The notes under the pieces were generated by a model. That model made no database searches. It saw only the letters and a list, made by a program, of their open reading frames with translations, and was not told where the DNA came from. Of a stretch of DNA of 64,000 bases, positions 2,792-29,683 are shown piece after piece (within the stretch, counting starts at the first letter, position 1; the number at the start of each line of letters is the position of its first letter). Made by a program: the position numbers and the translations under genes. The DNA is from a virus (Duplodnaviria; Caudoviricetes): the IMG/VR virus record IMGVR_UViG_3300037418_002116; one strand, 5' to 3'.

Positions 2792-4367
2792 TGGCATCGA
2801 ATTTCTAAGGGGCACGGGCGAGCAAATCGACTATACCCCGGAGATGCAAGCAGAAATCGTAAGATGTTACAACAGTTATGAGTATTTCGTAGAGAATTAC
2901 ATTAAGATTGACGATAACTCTGGTAATCTCAATCTAATCAAGCTGTATGACTATCAAAAGCGACTACTTAAGCTTATTCACTCAAACAAATTCGTTATTT
3001 GTAAGTTCCCTCGCCAGTGCGGTAAGACTACTTCGATGGCGACCTATATTGTTTGGTGTATCATCTTCAAAAAGCGTTTCAAGGTTGGTGTTGCCGCCGA
3101 TAAGGACGAAACGGCGACCGAAATTATGGACCGTGTGAAGACTGCTTACGAAAATCTGCCATATTGGATGCAACAAGGCGTCAAGAAATGGGACGCTCAC
3201 AAGGTCGTGCTTGAAAACGGCTCCCGTGTGGACGCTTCCGCTACCACCAAGAAAACCATGCGTGGTAAGACCTACAATCTTGTTTTGCTTGACGAATTTG
3301 CGTTCGTGGACCAGAACATCGCTGACCCATTCTTTACCGCTATCTACCCCGTTATTTCGAAGAATGATCCGACCAAGCGTATCGAGGAACAGACCAAACT
3401 TATCATCATCTCGACACCTAACGGCATGAATCACTTCCACAAGCTCTATGTGGAAGCCGAAAAGAAACAGAACACGTTTAAGAACATTGAAATTCGCTGG
3501 TACGAAGTGCCGGGCCGTGATGAAAAGTTCAAACAAGAAACAATCCGGAACATTGGCGACGACCGTTGGGAACAAGAATATGACGGCTCATTCCTTGGTG
3601 CCTCCACCAGCTTGATTCCGCCTAAGAAGCTGAAAACGCTTACTTGGGAAACACCGTTCGAAACATTCGAGGATATGGAATTTTATCGCCAGCCCGAGCC
3701 CGGTCACACATACTTCATTTCCGTTGACGTGTGCCGTGGTCGTGGTCTGGACTATCACGCTATGTCGATCATCGATATCACGCAACTGCCATATGTTGTG
3801 TGCGCCACCTATCACAACAATATGCTGGATACGATGTTGTATCCGACTCTGATTGTGAACATGGCTAAGCGCTACAATGAAGCGTTTGTGCTAATCGAAT
3901 TGAACGACATTGGTAAGCAAGTCGCTGATATCTGTGTTGAATTGGAATATGAAAATATGCTTTCAACCGTGACCAAAGGACGCTCCGGACAGGTGTTGAC
4001 GGTTGAATCGGGTAACGCCATGGGTCTAACCATGTCGAAGCCGGTGAAATCCACAGGCTGTTCTAACCTTAAGTCATTGATTGTAAACGATCAATTGATC
4101 CTGAATGACTACAAATACATTCAGGAATTGACCACGTTTGAAATTGCTTCTGGCCAGTACAAAGCGGCCCCCGGTGCGCATGACGATATGGTCATGTCTC
4201 TTGTGACATTTGCGTGGGCAACGACCGAAGTTTACTTCCAAGATTTGTTGGATGCTAACATTCGTGAAATGCTCTTCACAAAGCGCATCCAACAAATGGA
4301 AGATGACTTGGTGCCTGTAGGATTTCTAGGCGATATGAGCGGTGATGATACGCCAGTTGATTTTTAA
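2784..4367 (+). CDS. Terminase large subunit (T4 gp17-like)
   Basis: Walker A PRQCGKTT, Walker B LVLLDEFAF, ISTPNG motif III, nuclease motifs ISVDVCRG, ELNDIG and HDDMVMSL. Confidence 0.97.
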   Translation: MYNGIEFLRGTGEQIDYTPEMQAEIVRCYNSYEYFVENYIKIDDNSGNLNLIKLYDYQKRLLKLIHSNKFVICKFPRQCGKTTSMATYIVWCIIFKKRFKVGVAADKDETATEIMDRVKTAYENLPYWMQQGVKKWDAHKVVLENGSRVDASATTKKTMRGKTYNLVLLDEFAFVDQNIADPFFTAIYPVISKNDPTKRIEEQTKLIIISTPNGMNHFHKLYVEAEKKQNTFKNIEIRWYEVPGRDEKFKQETIRNIGDDRWEQEYDGSFLGASTSLIPPKKLKTLTWETPFETFEDMEFYRQPEPGHTYFISVDVCRGRGLDYHAMSIIDITQLPYVVCATYHNNMLDTMLYPTLIVNMAKRYNEAFVLIELNDIGKQVADICVELEYENMLSTVTKGRSGQVLTVESGNAMGLTMSKPVKSTGCSNLKSLIVNDQLILNDYKYIQELTTFEIASGQYKAAPGAHDDMVMSLVTFAWATTEVYFQDLLDANIREMLFTKRIQQMEDDLVPVGFLGDMSGDDTPVDF

Positions 4368-22800: not shown

Positions 22801-24237
22801 TCAGAGTTTTGCATTTTCTCTGACTTGATCGAGATTCCATAATTGTAGAATCTTACCATTTTCAAAAACTTTTGTCAAGGAATTTCGCATACCTTTGATA
22901 CCAACATCCCGTTCATCAATTGTGATGTACTTTCCGTCGATTGTATCTTTTGTGACCGCCAAGCGACCGGCCTTGGATGCCTTGCCCATGTCGCTCTTGG
23001 GTTTCTTGTACACGTCAACCCAACCGCTGCCCATATCCATGGCATTGCACTTCATGGCGTATTTGAGCGAGTCACGATTGACTTGCTGTAGCAGAGCGCC
23101 GCCCATGCCGAACACGATGTTGTCAGCAGACCAGCCATGATCCCGGTAATTTTCCAAGATCGCATGGATTGTGGCCTTGCCGACGCCATCACCTTGAAGG
23201 ATGCGCACGGACGGATGCAGGACATGGAAGCCCTTCGAATTTTCGGTATAACCGAATTTCTGCCCGAGCAATTCGATCACGTTCAAGGTGACTTCGACTG
23301 GATCACCGGAGTCGGGCCGAACCACAAGCAATGCGCCCGAGTCAAGCACTTCCTGTTTGAGCTTGTCGCCCCAAATGTTCGACACAGCATTGTAGATGTC
23401 ATAGGAATCCGACACGACAGACACGATTGCGCCCGGTTTGCCGAACTGTTTCAGCATATTCCGGTAAGCGTCTTCCTCATGCTCTTCGCCCCATGACGTG
23501 ATGGTGGAGTGTTCAGCCGCCGACACGGAAAAGCCCGCCATGTCACAGTTGTACTCCCAATAGGCACCGACAATCGCCGGAACGGTATCTGTGCCCATGA
23601 AATTGACAAGATGCGCCATCCCGCCAATCTTGGCCGACTCGAAGGATGATGCGCCACGGCAACCGAAATCATGGAGCTTGAACGGAATTTGTTCGGCTGG
23701 ATTGTCAGAAGTTTCCAGCAAAAATTTCCAGATATCTTTTTTAATTTCCCGTGACAGGGTAGCGACGGTCGATGGATACCAGACGGCCCGCAACAGCGCC
23801 GTTTCGACATAGCTGGTAAGCCAGAAGAAATCCGGATGAGTGTTGCGGATTTGAACTTGCGGCGTATGCAGCGGAACTACTGTCCCTTCCGGCAAGGCTT
23901 CGATGGAGAGTGGCATATAGCCTAGCTTTGCCAGTGCAAGCCATCCTTCCTTGTTGAAGGGGACGCCATGCTTCGCAGCAAGCTTCGCCGCCCATTCGAT
24001 TTGGTATTCATTTGGCACATACAAAAGCTCTTGCAAGAACGGCTGTAGGCCAAAGTGAACCACTTCCGGTTCCTTGCCAATCAAGCCCTTTTGATCGCTG
24101 AATGGAAATGCCGTACCACGAGTTTCAATGTAGGACGATACATATTTCGTGCCCGGTGGATATTGCAGCCAATGGCTGAATTTGTATGAATCACCCGACA
24201 GGATGATATTTTCGAATATAGATTCTCTAGCTGACAT
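22801..24237 (-). CDS. nadV: Nicotinamide phosphoribosyltransferase (Nampt)
   Basis: DSYKFSH, KLHDFGCRG, AEHSTITSWG, VSDSYD, VVRPDSGDP, ILQGDG, FGMGGALLQ motifs. Confidence 0.97.
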   Translation of the reverse strand: MSARESIFENIILSGDSYKFSHWLQYPPGTKYVSSYIETRGTAFPFSDQKGLIGKEPEVVHFGLQPFLQELLYVPNEYQIEWAAKLAAKHGVPFNKEGWLALAKLGYMPLSIEALPEGTVVPLHTPQVQIRNTHPDFFWLTSYVETALLRAVWYPSTVATLSREIKKDIWKFLLETSDNPAEQIPFKLHDFGCRGASSFESAKIGGMAHLVNFMGTDTVPAIVGAYWEYNCDMAGFSVSAAEHSTITSWGEEHEEDAYRNMLKQFGKPGAIVSVVSDSYDIYNAVSNIWGDKLKQEVLDSGALLVVRPDSGDPVEVTLNVIELLGQKFGYTENSKGFHVLHPSVRILQGDGVGKATIHAILENYRDHGWSADNIVFGMGGALLQQVNRDSLKYAMKCNAMDMGSGWVDVYKKPKSDMGKASKAGRLAVTKDTIDGKYITIDERDVGIKGMRNSLTKVFENGKILQLWNLDQVRENAKL

Positions 24238-25340: not shown

Positions 25341-26384
25341 TTAGAGCCCCAAAAATTGATCAATAATATCCCAATGATCTTCGAACATTTTTGTTGGGTC
25401 TAGATCGTCCAGCAAGACCCACTTGGCGTCAACGGCGTCGTCGGAACCCTTGATTGTCGGCAATTCCCCATCGGGCAAGCGAATGAGCGCTGCATGAGAG
25501 ACTGTGCGGCCTCTCTGACTCCGGTGTGGATGATCGGCCAAGAACCACTTTTCGATGGAGCCTTCAAGCTTTGGCAAGCGAACGCCAATCTTGGTTTCCT
25601 CGATTAGCTCACGCAACACGCCTTCCTTGACGGTTTCGCCTTGGTTCAGAAAGCCGCCCGGCAGAGCCCAAAGACCTTCACCCGGCATTCCGCCACGCTT
25701 GACCAAAAGCACATGACCAGACTGAACAACCACGGCATCGGTCGTGACGAAGATTGGCGGAAACTGGTTATATTTCTGCCCGTCAACTTCTACCGGCTCG
25801 AATTGCTTTTTGTATTTTTTGATGTGTTCATATTCTCGTTCAATCACATCCAATTCTGATTTGAAAAACAAATTGGTAACGATGCTCTTGTGATTGTCGT
25901 CCACAAACCATTCCGCATTACGTGGTCTGTTTTCATAGAATGCGCACCGAATATCGGTTGCGTTCACCGGATATGGAGTCGGTAAATCCAGCAAATCCCA
26001 TTGTGGGAATTTTTTCAGATAATAGGAAGAATGATCTTTCGAATGACCGATGACGCCAATTTTGGTTGGTCCAGCCCGCCACGGATGATTCGTGGCTGTT
26101 CTGATGATGGCTTGGATTTCAGTTTCCCATTTCGTGTCATTGTACATGAAATCATCACAGGGGACGACAGAGACACGCTTGCGTTCATCGGGTGTGAGCA
26201 ATGACTCGATCAAGCGTTTGCGTTCATCGAACGTGAACGGATTCTTTGCGGTGCGTGGCCTATTGGCCGAACCGACAATCAGGATAACGTTTTGGGATTT
26301 TGCGAGAGCGGTCTGTAAGACCTTGAAATGGCCAGCGTGAAATGGCTGGAAACGGCCTATGAAGGCCAGAAAATCGTACTGCAT
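25341..26384 (-). CDS. nadM: Bifunctional NMN adenylyltransferase/Nudix ADP-ribose pyrophosphatase (NadM-Nudix, NatV-like)
   Basis: FIGRFQPFHAGH, KNPFTFDER, VNATDIR, Nudix box GGFLNQGETVKEGVLRELIEETK, FEDHWDII. Confidence 0.95.
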   Translation of the reverse strand: MQYDFLAFIGRFQPFHAGHFKVLQTALAKSQNVILIVGSANRPRTAKNPFTFDERKRLIESLLTPDERKRVSVVPCDDFMYNDTKWETEIQAIIRTATNHPWRAGPTKIGVIGHSKDHSSYYLKKFPQWDLLDLPTPYPVNATDIRCAFYENRPRNAEWFVDDNHKSIVTNLFFKSELDVIEREYEHIKKYKKQFEPVEVDGQKYNQFPPIFVTTDAVVVQSGHVLLVKRGGMPGEGLWALPGGFLNQGETVKEGVLRELIEETKIGVRLPKLEGSIEKWFLADHPHRSQRGRTVSHAALIRLPDGELPTIKGSDDAVDAKWVLLDDLDPTKMFEDHWDIIDQFLGL

Positions 26385-26786: not shown

Positions 26787-26814
26787 AAAAGGGCTGTAGG
26801 TGCACCTACAGCCC
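26787..26814 (-). terminator. Intrinsic terminator downstream of tRNA-His
   Basis: Long GC-rich hairpin GGGCTGTAGG-TGCA-CCTACAGCCC with an A-run on its left (U-tract on the minus strand). Confidence 0.8.
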
Positions 26815-26823
26815 GGTAAATTT

Positions 26824-26899
26824 TGGGGTGATCGACGGTATTCGAAACCGTACTTACTGATTCACAGTCAATCGTGCTAACCACTACACCACGACCACC
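26824..26899 (-). tRNA. trnH: tRNA-His(GTG) with G-1:C73
   Basis: G-GTGGTCG/CGATCAC-C-CCA acceptor, anticodon loop CTGTGAA, T arm ACGGT-TTCGAAT-ACCGT. Confidence 0.92.
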
Positions 26900-26920
26900 A
26901 TAGATTTTTATTTAGCACGA

Positions 26921-27256
26921 TTATGGAGCAATTCCAACATCGTAATCGTATTCAAATTCTTCGTTTTCTTCGTCCCACTCGCCCTTCATTTCAAGAACCC
27001 ATGCATTATAGGCTTCGGACGGTTCGCCGGTACTCACTCGATATTCCGGATCATGGTCTTTCCAACGGGCTTCCACAACAATAACTGGCGTCCCTTTGAG
27101 GATGCGAGCAACTTGATCCATGCACCATTGCTTATGCCAACCATCGTACTGGCCATATCGTTCAATGTAATACATTGCCCAATCAGTTGGGGTGAAATTT
27201 TTGAAGGGAGAAAAATCGATATCGACCGGGAATTCTCCCAAATAATTTTCAGCCAT
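26921..27256 (-). CDS. Acidic hypothetical protein
   Basis: Overlaps the HisRS-like gene end. Confidence 0.7.
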   Translation of the reverse strand: MAENYLGEFPVDIDFSPFKNFTPTDWAMYYIERYGQYDGWHKQWCMDQVARILKGTPVIVVEARWKDHDPEYRVSTGEPSEAYNAWVLEMKGEWDEENEEFEYDYDVGIAP

Positions 27257-27896
27257 CTTTTTTGTCCAGTGCCAGCATGAGACGATCTACACCGATAGCC
27301 CAACCGATTCCTTGTGCGTATCGACCACCACCGGCAACCTGTTTCTGTGCGCCAAGCGACTCGCACTCAACTTCGAAACCATCCTCGATATAGTAACCCA
27401 AACCACGGGTAACCGTCTCTTTGAAGTCGAAGTCCAAAACAGGGTCCATCCCGAGTGCATAGAGGCAATCCTTTAACAGGAATTTTGCCTCATAGGCATC
27501 CTCTTCAGGATTTTTGTTGCCAAGGATTTCCACACCAAACTGTGTGAATTCCCGATAGCGACCAGCTTGCGGGCGCTCATAGCGATAGCAGCGATTCACA
27601 TAGAAAAGCTTGATTGGCTTGGGCATCGCTTTGCTCCAATCCGAATCATACATTTCCTGAATGATTCCGGTGACTTCCGGAATCAATGTCACGCCACGAC
27701 CGCCCTTGTCTGCGAAGGACCACATTTGATCCTTCGTTTCATTTGAAATTTTCTTACAAAAGGTTTCGGCATCCCAAATGGAAGGGATCACAACTTCCTT
27801 GAAGCCACGGGCTTTACAAGTTACACGCAACGTATCGATAACATTCGTGTAAAGAGCCGCTTCCTCTCCCATTAATATGCGGGTGCCTTTCAGCAT
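27249..27896 (-). CDS. Minimal histidyl-tRNA synthetase-like protein (catalytic core only, 215 aa)
   Basis: Start at ATG 27896 with AAGGAAG RBS; motif 1 GFKEVVIP, TLIPEVT, motif 2 YRYERPQAGRYREFTQFGVE, HisA RGLGYY, HisB GGGRY, motif 3 GWAIGVDRL. Confidence 0.9.
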   Translation of the reverse strand: MLKGTRILMGEEAALYTNVIDTLRVTCKARGFKEVVIPSIWDAETFCKKISNETKDQMWSFADKGGRGVTLIPEVTGIIQEMYDSDWSKAMPKPIKLFYVNRCYRYERPQAGRYREFTQFGVEILGNKNPEEDAYEAKFLLKDCLYALGMDPVLDFDFKETVTRGLGYYIEDGFEVECESLGAQKQVAGGGRYAQGIGWAIGVDRLMLALDKKDG

Positions 27897-27897
27897 T

Positions 27898-28209
27898 TTA
27901 CTTCCTTTGGACAAGTGCAACGTAAACTTTGTCCACAATAGACTCAAAATATACGTTTGTCCAGCCGTGTGATTTGAAATGTTTGCGAATTGCGGCATAA
28001 ACTTTATGCCTGTTTTCCCGAGAAATCTTGGGAGCATCGAAGTTCATCACATAGGCAGTAAGGCCAGTTTTCACCGCTTCTTCTGCCAAAGGCCAATCGA
28101 ATGGCATGGGTGTTTTTGAGAAATACGAAACCGTCTCATACTCTTCCGCCTGCAAATTCTTGTCTATGACATTTTGGAGCCGGGCGGTTGCGGTCGAAAG
28201 TTTCATCAT
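27898..28209 (-). CDS. Hypothetical protein
   Basis: Behind a TTTGAC-N16-CTATAT promoter; abuts the HisRS-like gene. Confidence 0.65.
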   Translation of the reverse strand: MMKLSTATARLQNVIDKNLQAEEYETVSYFSKTPMPFDWPLAEEAVKTGLTAYVMNFDAPKISRENRHKVYAAIRKHFKSHGWTNVYFESIVDKVYVALVQRK

Positions 28210-28277
28210 CGAATCTCCTAGGTTGCCGATTTTATGGCGAATATAGGGATTATATGATTGATGTCAAACAGAAATTT

Positions 28278-28703: not shown

Positions 28704-29073
28704 TCCTGAATGCTCTTTGCGTAGCCCTTGTCATAGCCATTAAGTCTTCCAAGGTGAGTTTGTATTTCCGTTTAGTATACGCTTCAATTGCCCCTAAAAG
28801 GTCGGAAAGCTCCACCAGTTCCATGACAGGATTGTCTTGCAACTTGGCATCCATAAACTCTTCATATTCTTCGGTAATTTTTGATGCCTTACCAAGCTCA
28901 CCCTTTTTGATTTCCGTGGTGTGATAGCCGCAATCGTATTCTTGCTTTACCATTCTCTCACCGGAGAAATCACTAATGACACGGAAACCCGGTTCAGGAG
29001 TGCCACAACCGGAGCATTTGCCGTCTATAAAGTGCTTACACTTTCCGTCGTCCAATTTATTTCGCTTTCTCAA
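28687..29073 (-). CDS. MazG/HisE-like all-alpha NTP pyrophosphohydrolase
   Basis: SKITEEYEEFMDA...ELVELSDLLGAIE (EExxE...ExxD) metal-binding pattern. Confidence 0.7.
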   Translation of the reverse strand: MRKRNKLDDGKCKHFIDGKCSGCGTPEPGFRVISDFSGERMVKQEYDCGYHTTEIKKGELGKASKITEEYEEFMDAKLQDNPVMELVELSDLLGAIEAYTKRKYKLTLEDLMAMTRATQRAFRNGHRK

Positions 29074-29683
29074 TATTTTTTAAAATTCTTGTCAACCTCG
29101 GAAGCGCAACACCGGTTCCATATATCCATGTCGCAAACGAACAAGAGCGCAACCCATAAGAGCCGATTTCGACTCCGCACAACTCGATATCCCATGAGTC
29201 ATCCGTGGTCCGGACGATCTTCAACATTTCTTCCGCTTCACGTCGATTATGGTAATTCAGGCTACCGGGAGATTTGGCCGGGCGAACCAATGCATTGTTC
29301 GTGTATTCCAGAAAGAAATTATAGGCGATTTTCATGAGTGGTTGAACGGCATCGACCGTCACGTCACCAAAATATATCAATTCATTTTTCATGAAATATT
29401 TTGTGTGATAGAGCCCGAAATTATCATCCCTCATGCATGGTGTGACTGCCTGATAGCGGCCCGGCAACAGAAAGCCTTTGTTGATAAGGTACAGGAACGA
29501 TTGTTCCGCCGAACCAACGAAATTCTTTTTCTTCCCGTTCTTGATCACTTCATGGGGATGGACACCATCTGGCTTGGTGATGTTCAAAATTTCATCCGGC
29601 ACCAGCCATGGAGCTTCGATTCGTGAAAATCCATGGTGTTCATAATAGGAAATCGAACCCGCCAGAATCGAGTAGTCTATCAT
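29057..29683 (-). CDS. Stand-alone class II aminoacyl-tRNA-synthetase-like catalytic domain
   Basis: Motif 1 GFSRIEAPW, GSAEQSF, motif 2 TPCMRDD...HTKYFMKNEL, VEIGSYG, motif 3 GTGVALPRL. Confidence 0.7.
   Translation of the reverse strand: MIDYSILAGSISYYEHHGFSRIEAPWLVPDEILNITKPDGVHPHEVIKNGKKKNFVGSAEQSFLYLINKGFLLPGRYQAVTPCMRDDNFGLYHTKYFMKNELIYFGDVTVDAVQPLMKIAYNFFLEYTNNALVRPAKSPGSLNYHNRREAEEMLKIVRTTDDSWDIELCGVEIGSYGLRSCSFATWIYGTGVALPRLTRILKNIEKAK

Follow-up and report, generated by a model that had tools for sequence, protein, structure and literature searches.

A short histidyl-tRNA synthetase gene and its neighbouring tRNA-His

We analyzed a 64,000-nt stretch of phage DNA (IMG/VR record IMGVR_UViG_3300037418_002116; Duplodnaviria, Caudoviricetes), hereafter the window, which carries a gene for an unusually short histidyl-tRNA synthetase (mini-HisRS) close to a tRNA-His gene. 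The mini-HisRS gene (27249..27896, minus strand) is an uninterrupted open reading frame (ORF) of 215 amino acids (aa), identified by sequence, profile and fold matches as a HisRS class II catalytic core. Its ATG at 27896 is preceded by an AGGAAG ribosome-binding site and stands 1 nt after the stop codon of a 103-aa ORF (27898..28209, minus strand), and gene callers found the identical 215-aa product on 11 independent metagenome contigs. The tRNA-His(GUG) gene (26824..26899, minus strand) has an encoded G-1 at 26899, G1:C72, C73 and CCA, an acceptor stem of GTGGTCG/CGATCAC and an 8-nt D-loop; ARAGORN called it as tRNA-His(GTG) at 26824-26898 on the minus strand, and the Rfam tRNA model scored it at 62.2 bits. 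An earlier reading of the letters without database searches (the sequence-only reading) had placed a tRNA-His with encoded G-1 and C73 about 350 nt downstream of the synthetase gene, and ARAGORN together with direct reading bore this out. The gap measures 351 nt and is occupied by a 111-aa ORF (26921..27256, minus strand; PHROG 23179), the start of which overlaps the mini-HisRS stop codon (ATGGCTGA).

Along the minus strand, the order is a sigma-70-like promoter match, the 103-aa ORF, mini-HisRS, the 111-aa ORF, tRNA-His(GUG) and a hairpin. The putative promoter (28240..28267, minus strand; TTGACA-16-TATATT, 11/12) came from a consensus scan only, and the palindromic, G+C-rich hairpin of 10 bp (26791..26814) lies 10 nt past the 3' end of the tRNA-His. 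The four genes probably form one transcription unit, for which the hairpin is a likely end; this co-transcription was judged from consensus scans only. An Rfam scan of the window found three tRNAs only, with no leader, T-box or riboswitch, and none of the phage records was matched by megablast with the 5 kb surrounding the locus.

The short protein retains the HisRS active site and acceptor-end contacts

Profile searches placed the protein with HisRS. It matched TIGR00442 (hisS) at 5.9e-48 in two stretches with 163.8 bits, below the cut-off of 286.75, and Pfam PF13393 (tRNA-synt_His) and PF00587 at 1.5e-20 and 1.6e-09, respectively. When aligned to the T. thermophilus HisRS (1adj/4rdx; E 5e-35), residues 2-150 corresponded to 6-156 and residues 155-212 to 250-318; the insertion domain with its flanks and everything past motif 3 are absent. 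Likewise, positions ~154-253 and beyond 325 of the hisS profile had no counterpart in mini-HisRS. The translation contains PEVT, the motif-2 loop RYERPQAGRYR, RGLGYY, GGGRY and motif 3 (GIGWAIGVDR). The sequence-only reading was therefore correct in describing a 215-aa protein that keeps class II motifs 1-3, PExT, the HisA and HisB loops and this motif-2 loop and lacks both the insertion domain and the anticodon-binding domain. With a hidden Markov model made from 73 full-length HisRS we looked for an anticodon-binding or insertion domain that might be provided in trans, and none turned up among the six-frame ORFs of the window.

Residue equivalences were counted along the T. thermophilus alignment, with the tRNA contacts taken from the 4RDX paper (PMC4357726). 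HisA (R164-G-L-G-Y-Y169) and HisB (G189-G-G-R-Y193) align to Thermus R259..Y264 and GGGRY; when 30 homologs were aligned, R164, G165, Y168, Y169, G189-191 and Y193 did not vary. The histidine and ATP site is kept throughout (Thermus E81, T83, R112, Q126, R259 and Y264 are E74, T76, R105, Q119, R164 and Y169 here), as is the motif-3 Arg. The acceptor-end contacts are also in place: E114 (to A76), R115, Q117 (to the 71/72 backbone), R120 (to C74), R122 and G260 of Thermus correspond to E107, R108, Q110, R113, R115 and G165, and the glycines of the cross-subunit G-1 pocket, G72/G73, to G65/G66. All or nearly all of these active-site and contact residues are invariant in the 30-homolog alignment. 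Q110, within ERPQAGR, is invariant in the family, and Gln at this place (E. coli Q118, Thermus Q117) is the mark of the HisRS subtype that reads G-1:C73. From these residues, mini-HisRS looks catalytically competent and of the E. coli/Thermus type, with a Gln loop reading G-1:C73.

The AlphaFold (AF2) model was confident (predicted local distance difference test, pLDDT, 91.1; predicted template modelling score, pTM, 0.89), and Foldseek gave template modelling (TM) scores of 0.85-0.89 to the catalytic domains of E. coli and Thermus HisRS. With its class II catalytic core complete, the protein exceeds an engineered 'urzyme' in size, and the earlier term 'urzyme-like' overstated its reduction. 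Homodimer prediction scored 0.85, compared with 0.00 for the best of three controls, with at least 98% contact agreement between runs and a partner pLDDT of at least 87; among known homodimers, 21 of 30 came up to the score mark used, and among monomers, 0 of 23. The predicted interface (residues 1-17, 33-42, 59-71 and 102-116) is the canonical class II one. This score may reflect likeness to solved HisRS dimers and is not a proof of dimerization.

We also considered HisZ, the HisRS paralog, as the identity of the protein, and rejected it: the hisZ profile gave 93.9 bits and 9e-27 (cut-off 271.65), against 163.8 bits and 5.9e-48 for hisS, and the catalytic residues are kept.

Short forms make up an old family found mostly in huge phages

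At E<1e-5, a word-indexed search returned 2,321 homologs, of which the top 120 were all ~200-220 aa long with 54-79% identity, many of them on contigs of 100-670 kb. An exhaustive search of representatives gave ~40 clusters of short forms, and full-length HisRS that matched over two stretches with 40-45% identity. A quick maximum-likelihood tree put the window protein into a clade of 44 short forms (Shimodaira-Hasegawa-like approximate likelihood ratio test, SH-aLRT, 96), separate from the clade with all 45 sampled full-length HisRS (99); copies from bacterial assemblies were interleaved with phage copies, and a second, more divergent group of short forms was left unplaced. Because the short forms make up a supported clade apart from the full-length enzymes, the tree indicates that the short architecture is old and maintained and not a recent truncation.

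The same data bear on the idea that the gene is a decaying, functionless fragment of a captured hisS. A length only half of normal and a score below the NCBIfam hisS cut-off (163.8 vs 286.75 bits) would suit a fragment, but there are thousands of homologs of the same length with invariant catalytic residues, the short forms are a supported clade, the identical protein occurs on 11 contigs, and the fold is confidently predicted. The conservation data effectively refute this pseudogene reading, and we give it next to no weight.

The family is found mostly in huge phages. Sinorhizobium phage Phosso (469 kb) is one of the phage records with a homolog (62% identity, annotated as histidyl-tRNA synthetase), and two uncultured phages of 630-640 kb are others; IMG/VR gave 43 mini-HisRS loci, mostly in phages of 150-600 kb. 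PHROGs has no family for it. Homologs were also found in bacterial assemblies of Thalassospira, Pararhizobium, Azospirillum, eight Pseudomonas species, Chromobacterium and several metagenome-assembled genomes; normal hisS and hisZ were present as well in the four bacterial genomes checked. Among the bacterial contexts there was no common neighbour gene beyond close Pseudomonas relatives. In the Pseudomonas syringae group, the chromosomal copies (P. cerasi, locus L066, 5046-7722; also L065 and L074) are flanked by genes for a GNAT acetyltransferase and for a calcineurin-like phosphoesterase; an IcmF gene of type VI secretion is close by, and tRNAs are absent from the vicinity.

Histidine avoidance and a putative +1 frameshift

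The window protein contains no histidine. Across 112 family proteins, the His content was 0.28%, and 70 of them, the window's included, were His-free; the values for comparison were 1.2% in full-length HisRS cores and 2.8% in the long ORFs of the window.

The N-terminus could be recognised in 41 close relatives, and in 37 of these, those of Phosso, Thalassospira, Pseudomonas and Chromobacterium among them, the mini-HisRS gene is split. An N-terminal ORF of ~28-32 codons (MLRGTR...LR..L/V-H) ends at a stop codon, and the body of the protein is read in the +1 frame. At the junction stands a conserved (C/G)TT CA(T/C) His codon, in most cases with TGA right after it. Split genes were located in Phosso (4040-4130 of locus L001) and at the homolog start in loci L005-L008, L012-L016, L018-L024, L057, L060, L062-L070 and L072-L074. 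The window gene is fused and needs no shift, as in a minority of the family (L004, L017, L045 and L059). To judge from its sequence, the junction looks like a programmed +1 frameshift that senses His-tRNA-His: ribosomes would shift at the hungry His codon, and expression would go up when His-tRNA-His drops, by the same logic as the RF2 (prfB) frameshift. Since the dimer interface, as predicted, includes the N-terminal segment, the frameshift would be needed for function. The avoidance of histidine and the apparent His-codon frameshift fit an enzyme that would be made when charged tRNA-His is scarce.

Linkage to tRNA-His and two tRNA identity types

Phage mini-HisRS genes usually lie inside large tRNA arrays. 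We compared 41 dereplicated loci, 24 of which have a tRNA within 1 kb of the gene, and found that the nearest tRNA was tRNA-His in 12 of these 24, against a background of 5.5% among 546 tRNAs (binomial p ~1e-9); the loci are phylogenetically related and not independent, so that this p value is an upper bound on the significance. A tRNA-His occurred within 10 kb in 21 of the 41 loci, and two genomes without one nearby have a G-1:C73 tRNA-His elsewhere. The covariance model R1 matched all tRNAs and served only to pick the top hits, and BLAST with the phage tRNA-His as query did not recover host tRNA-His genes.

Two types of tRNA-His were found in these loci. Type A has G-1, G1:C72, C73 and mostly A37, and often lies 12-120 nt from the mini-HisRS gene; the tRNA-His adjacent to mini-HisRS is almost always of this G-1:C73 type. 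In Type B, position -1 is T, G1 and U72 form a wobble pair, position 73 is A (rarely U or G) and position 37 is G, which is the signature of the alphaproteobacterial clade that lost G-1 (PMC3064791, PMC3937112). Several phages carry both types within ~1 kb of mini-HisRS. The second, Type B gene was located in huge phages at L006 9275-9348, L013 10692-10764, L018 9343-9418, L023 9466-9541 and L049 9193-9266 (Phosso), and also at L059 3708-3782. The co-occurrence of mini-HisRS and G-1 tRNA-His, which the sequence-only reading had named as a check, held in part: the nearest tRNA is far more often His than expected, and of the G-1:C73 type, but 20 of the 41 loci have no tRNA-His within 10 kb.

These loci also bear on the possibility that mini-HisRS activates histidine without charging any tRNA. 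The histidine would then be passed to a carrier protein or a small molecule, in the manner of amino acid:carrier protein ligases and AsnA, or the enzyme would make a nucleotide signal or serve as a HisZ-like histidine sensor. Stand-alone class II cores without an anticodon-binding domain usually have such non-tRNA functions (HisZ, AsnA, EpmA and amino acid:carrier protein ligases; PMC9437257), the Pseudomonas chromosomal copies stand beside GNAT acetyltransferase genes with no tRNA nearby, and half of the phage loci have no nearby tRNA-His. However, all residues contacting the acceptor end (C74, A76 and the 70-72 backbone) are conserved, and the linkage to G-1:C73 tRNA-His is strongly enriched. 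HisZ itself lacks the adenylation residues, and its profile scored far lower (9e-27 vs 5.9e-48). No conserved partner gene was found in the loci compared, and the His-codon frameshift would be most sensible if its product restored charged tRNA-His. We therefore regard a non-tRNA function as unlikely.

Many of these huge phages also carry tRNAs, one or two each, that have the anticodon CUA and resemble amber suppressors (called tRNA-Pyl by ARAGORN), located in the Phosso tRNA regions (L049-L051) and at L006 15783-15870, L015 14458-14614, L026 2286-2440 and L034 17139-17291. In-frame TAG or TGA codons were seen in some profile matches, and the two observations together may point to stop-codon recoding.

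Rhizobial phages and hosts with both tRNA-His systems

Phosso was isolated on S. meliloti. Its tRNA regions contain 61 tRNAs, exactly two of which are tRNA-His: a Type A gene, 276 nt from mini-HisRS and with an acceptor stem identical to that of the window tRNA-His, and a Type B gene ~45 kb away, across the origin. No full-length HisRS was found in Phosso or in three CheckV-complete huge phages. A mini-HisRS element in Pararhizobium sp. BT-229 likewise has a Type A and a type-B-like tRNA-His. The host tRNA-His of Pararhizobium has T at -1, G1:U72, A73, G37 and a 9-nt D-loop, and its HisS of 517 aa reads EKPGPGR where mini-HisRS has ERPQAGR; this Gly-for-Gln change in motif 2 has been described for the alphaproteobacterial clade without G-1 (PMC3937112). 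The HisS of Pseudomonas and Thalassospira reads ERPQKGR, and the own tRNA-His of Pseudomonas, Thalassospira and Azospirillum is of the G-1:C73 type. Both HisRS/tRNA-His systems coexist in nature, at least in Phosso and Pararhizobium.

The sequence-only reading had drawn on published work on how the two HisRS types tell their tRNAs apart, and these literature claims are borne out. Caulobacter HisRS loses more than 250-fold in efficiency on E. coli tRNA-His (PMC3064791), and the HisRS/tRNA-His pair from E. coli is orthogonal in Caulobacter (PMC3875453). The G-1, C72, C73 and 8-nt D-loop of the window tRNA are features that cost Caulobacter HisRS more than 250-fold (PMC3064791); Phosso (on S. meliloti) and the Pararhizobium element are the cases with an established type of host.

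For the window phage, there are indirect hints of a host of Rhizobiales type: its DNA occurs in rhizosphere and soil metagenomes, its nicotinamide phosphoribosyltransferase (NAMPT) most resembles the enzymes encoded by phages of Ruegeria, Phaeobacter, Mesorhizobium and Rhizobium, and its tRNA-His shares the Phosso acceptor stem. An attempt at host assignment with a second large ORF of the window gave zero phage matches.

The divergence of rhizobial HisRS also weakens a further explanation, in which mini-HisRS would heterodimerize with host HisRS through the motif-1 interface and either borrow the host's anticodon-binding domain or inactivate the host enzyme. The predicted interface is canonical, and HisRS forms its G-1 pocket from more than one subunit (PMC4357726). 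But the Rhizobiales-type HisRS is so divergent (517 aa, with a different motif-2 region) that a common interface is unlikely, and a homodimer was confidently predicted. We consider heterodimerization very improbable.

The cultured Pararhizobium sp. BT-229 carries phage-like tRNA arrays together with mini-HisRS in a 1.6-Mb contig (locus L059; contig 3 of genome G005, ~198-224 kb and 1553-1595 kb). This contig may hold an integrated or co-assembled huge phage and offer a possible experimental system.

A proposed charging module and the case against it

We give a probability of about 0.55 to the reading that mini-HisRS is an active, homodimeric minimal HisRS that charges G-1:C73 tRNA-His by the acceptor end alone, the two forming a portable module that would be orthogonal in Rhizobiales-type hosts. 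Adenylation, tRNA charging, co-transcription and the host type of the window phage are the inferred parts of it. In the proposed mechanism, histidine would first be activated by the standard HisRS active site. It would then be transferred to tRNA-His by a motif-2 loop that reads the acceptor end only (G-1:C73, C74 and A76) without gripping the anticodon, and the intended substrate would be the co-transcribed G-1:C73 tRNA-His. Histidine activation is likely, and charging of G-1:C73 tRNA-His is probable to a lesser degree. Mutants in the insertion-domain contacts retain at least half of the activity (PMC4357726), and, according to the same paper, the isolated catalytic domain of the E. coli enzyme keeps charging at ~0.6% efficiency. 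An acceptor-end-only HisRS is biochemically plausible, though possibly slow, because the insertion contacts are dispensable and the E. coli catalytic domain still charges tRNA.

Enzyme and tRNA would in this way form a charging module independent of the host HisRS. Where the host tRNA-His is of the standard kind, the module would add or back up charging capacity. In the group of Rhizobiales, Rhodobacterales and Caulobacterales, the host tRNA-His lacks G-1 and the host HisRS reads U72, A73 and the anticodon, so that the module would necessarily be an orthogonal second channel, and phages of these hosts also bring a host-type tRNA-His for the host enzyme. A self-sufficient module working in any host would account for the occurrence of the pair in phages of varied hosts, and for the enzyme being kept alone on the chromosomes of G-1 bacteria. 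Put at its broadest, phages of Rhizobiales/Rhodobacterales-type hosts would import a second histidine-decoding channel, made up of the smallest natural synthetase known to charge full tRNA and a G-1:C73 tRNA, insulated from the host system and switched on by +1 frameshifting at a hungry His codon in most relatives; this wider proposal is tentative, with odds somewhat below even.

The claim of an orthogonal pair in a G-1-less alphaproteobacterial host survives in part: the setting exists in Phosso and Pararhizobium, but the window phage itself is T4-like and not a Phosso relative, and orthogonality in its actual host is somewhat less likely than not. Orthogonality as the general purpose of the family has to be given up, as members also occur in G-1 hosts (Pseudomonas, Thalassospira and Azospirillum). 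The further suggestion that the pair tolerates anticodon-loop cleavage is pure speculation.

Several findings weigh against the module. The T4-like terminase of the window phage has its best match, at 45%, to Synechococcus phages. At 20 of the 41 loci, there is no tRNA-His within 10 kb, and the Pseudomonas chromosomal copies lie among unrelated genes in tRNA-free surroundings. Phages of Rhizobiales-type hosts also carry Type B tRNA-His, so that a second channel is not strictly required. Finally, the E. coli catalytic domain is ~170-fold less efficient than the full enzyme (PMC4357726), and since mini-HisRS lacks the insertion domain too, its charging could be too slow to matter.

The strongest competitor keeps the enzymology and drops the orthogonality: the host would have a standard tRNA-His, and the module would boost or back up the supply of His-tRNA in infected cells, for example if too little host HisRS is available or if it is shut off or inhibited. 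Members of the family are present in Pseudomonas, Thalassospira and Azospirillum, which have their own G-1:C73 tRNA-His, and in huge phages; the window terminase is unrelated to that of Phosso; and a His-codon frameshift with avoidance of histidine would suit a starvation backup in any host. On the other hand, the nearest characterised carrier infects S. meliloti, the acceptor stem of the window tRNA-His equals that of Phosso, the samples are rhizosphere or soil, and NAMPT is nearest to those of phages of Rhizobiales/Rhodobacterales hosts. We regard this supply role as rather unlikely, although it deserves more credit than the other alternatives.

If the enzyme of the proposed module is active, it would mark a natural lower limit for a class II synthetase that charges tRNA, at ~200 aa and without anticodon reading, which bears on early synthetases. 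It would also supply a compact, ready-made orthogonal HisRS/tRNA pair for genetic-code engineering in alphaproteobacteria, demonstrate that phages can carry a whole decoding channel of enzyme and tRNA with identity rules unlike the host's, and explain how a tRNA gene can be of use in such hosts in spite of its "wrong" identity elements. A direct test is feasible, as the same arrangement is available in culture with Phosso and S. meliloti.

Neighbouring genes in the window

Just downstream of the tRNA-His unit lies a nicotinamide adenine dinucleotide (NAD) salvage pair (22801-24237 and 25341-26384, both minus strand), which consists of NAMPT and a fusion of a NadM-type nicotinamide mononucleotide (NMN) adenylyltransferase with Nudix. 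Another minimal protein that resembles class II synthetases (208 aa; 29057-29683, minus strand) is encoded 620 nt upstream of the two tRNA-Gln genes. Its homologs on large phage contigs number 488 and are ~180-200 aa long, and some of them match PF00152 (class IIb) weakly. The 208-aa protein matched PHROG 4806 ('histidyl tRNA synthetase') at 1e-34 and had no Pfam or PDB sequence match, and its confident AF2 model (pLDDT 91.6) resembles generic class II cores (PylRS and SerRS) at a TM score of ~0.65; the PHROG 4806 label is probably not reliable as applied to this protein. Homologs of this gene, of the 111-aa ORF and of the 103-aa ORF were not found beside mini-HisRS in 46 other loci.

Comparison with known systems

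The homology itself is not new, as GenBank and JGI annotate members as histidyl-tRNA synthetase. In a literature search of incomplete coverage, which is not a proof of novelty, we found no paper on the short architecture as a family, on the pairing of mini-HisRS with G-1:C73 tRNA-His, or on two tRNA-His identity types together with mini-HisRS in rhizobial phages. G-1-less tRNA-His in alphaproteobacterial phages had already been noted (PMC5389517).

Mini-HisRS shares with bacterial HisRS (class IIa; E. coli 1KMM/2EL9 and T. thermophilus 1ADJ/4RDX) the catalytic fold, motifs 1-3, HisA and HisB, the Gln motif-2 loop and the dimer interface, at ~40-45% identity to some full-length HisRS over the core. 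It differs from the full-length enzymes in its size (215 vs ~420 aa), in having neither insertion nor anticodon-binding domain, in its hisS score below the cut-off, and in being almost His-free. The N-terminal catalytic domain of E. coli HisRS, an engineered truncation, and the HisRS urzymes, engineered proteins of 120-140 aa, activate histidine and charge tRNA-His by the acceptor end without an anticodon-binding domain. Unlike these laboratory constructs, mini-HisRS is natural and conserved and also lacks the insertion domain, and unlike the urzymes, it keeps the whole beta-sheet core.

HisZ is likewise a HisRS paralog without the anticodon-binding domain, but it keeps the insertion region, has no adenylation activity and works with HisG (PMC9437257), whereas mini-HisRS keeps the catalytic residues. 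CysRS* with selC* tRNA-Cys (PMC5389517) is also an extra synthetase without an anticodon-binding domain that adjoins a dedicated tRNA recognised at the acceptor end; it differs in being class I and bacterial chromosomal, and in its amino acid and purpose. The likeness to the E. coli pair in Caulobacter (PMC3875453) lies in a G-1:C73 enzyme and tRNA placed beside a G-1-less, anticodon-reading host system, as in Phosso and Pararhizobium. The pair used in Caulobacter is an engineered one, in which the enzyme is full-length and the tRNA has a suppressor anticodon, whereas the mini-HisRS pair is natural, phage-borne and minimal, with the normal GUG anticodon.

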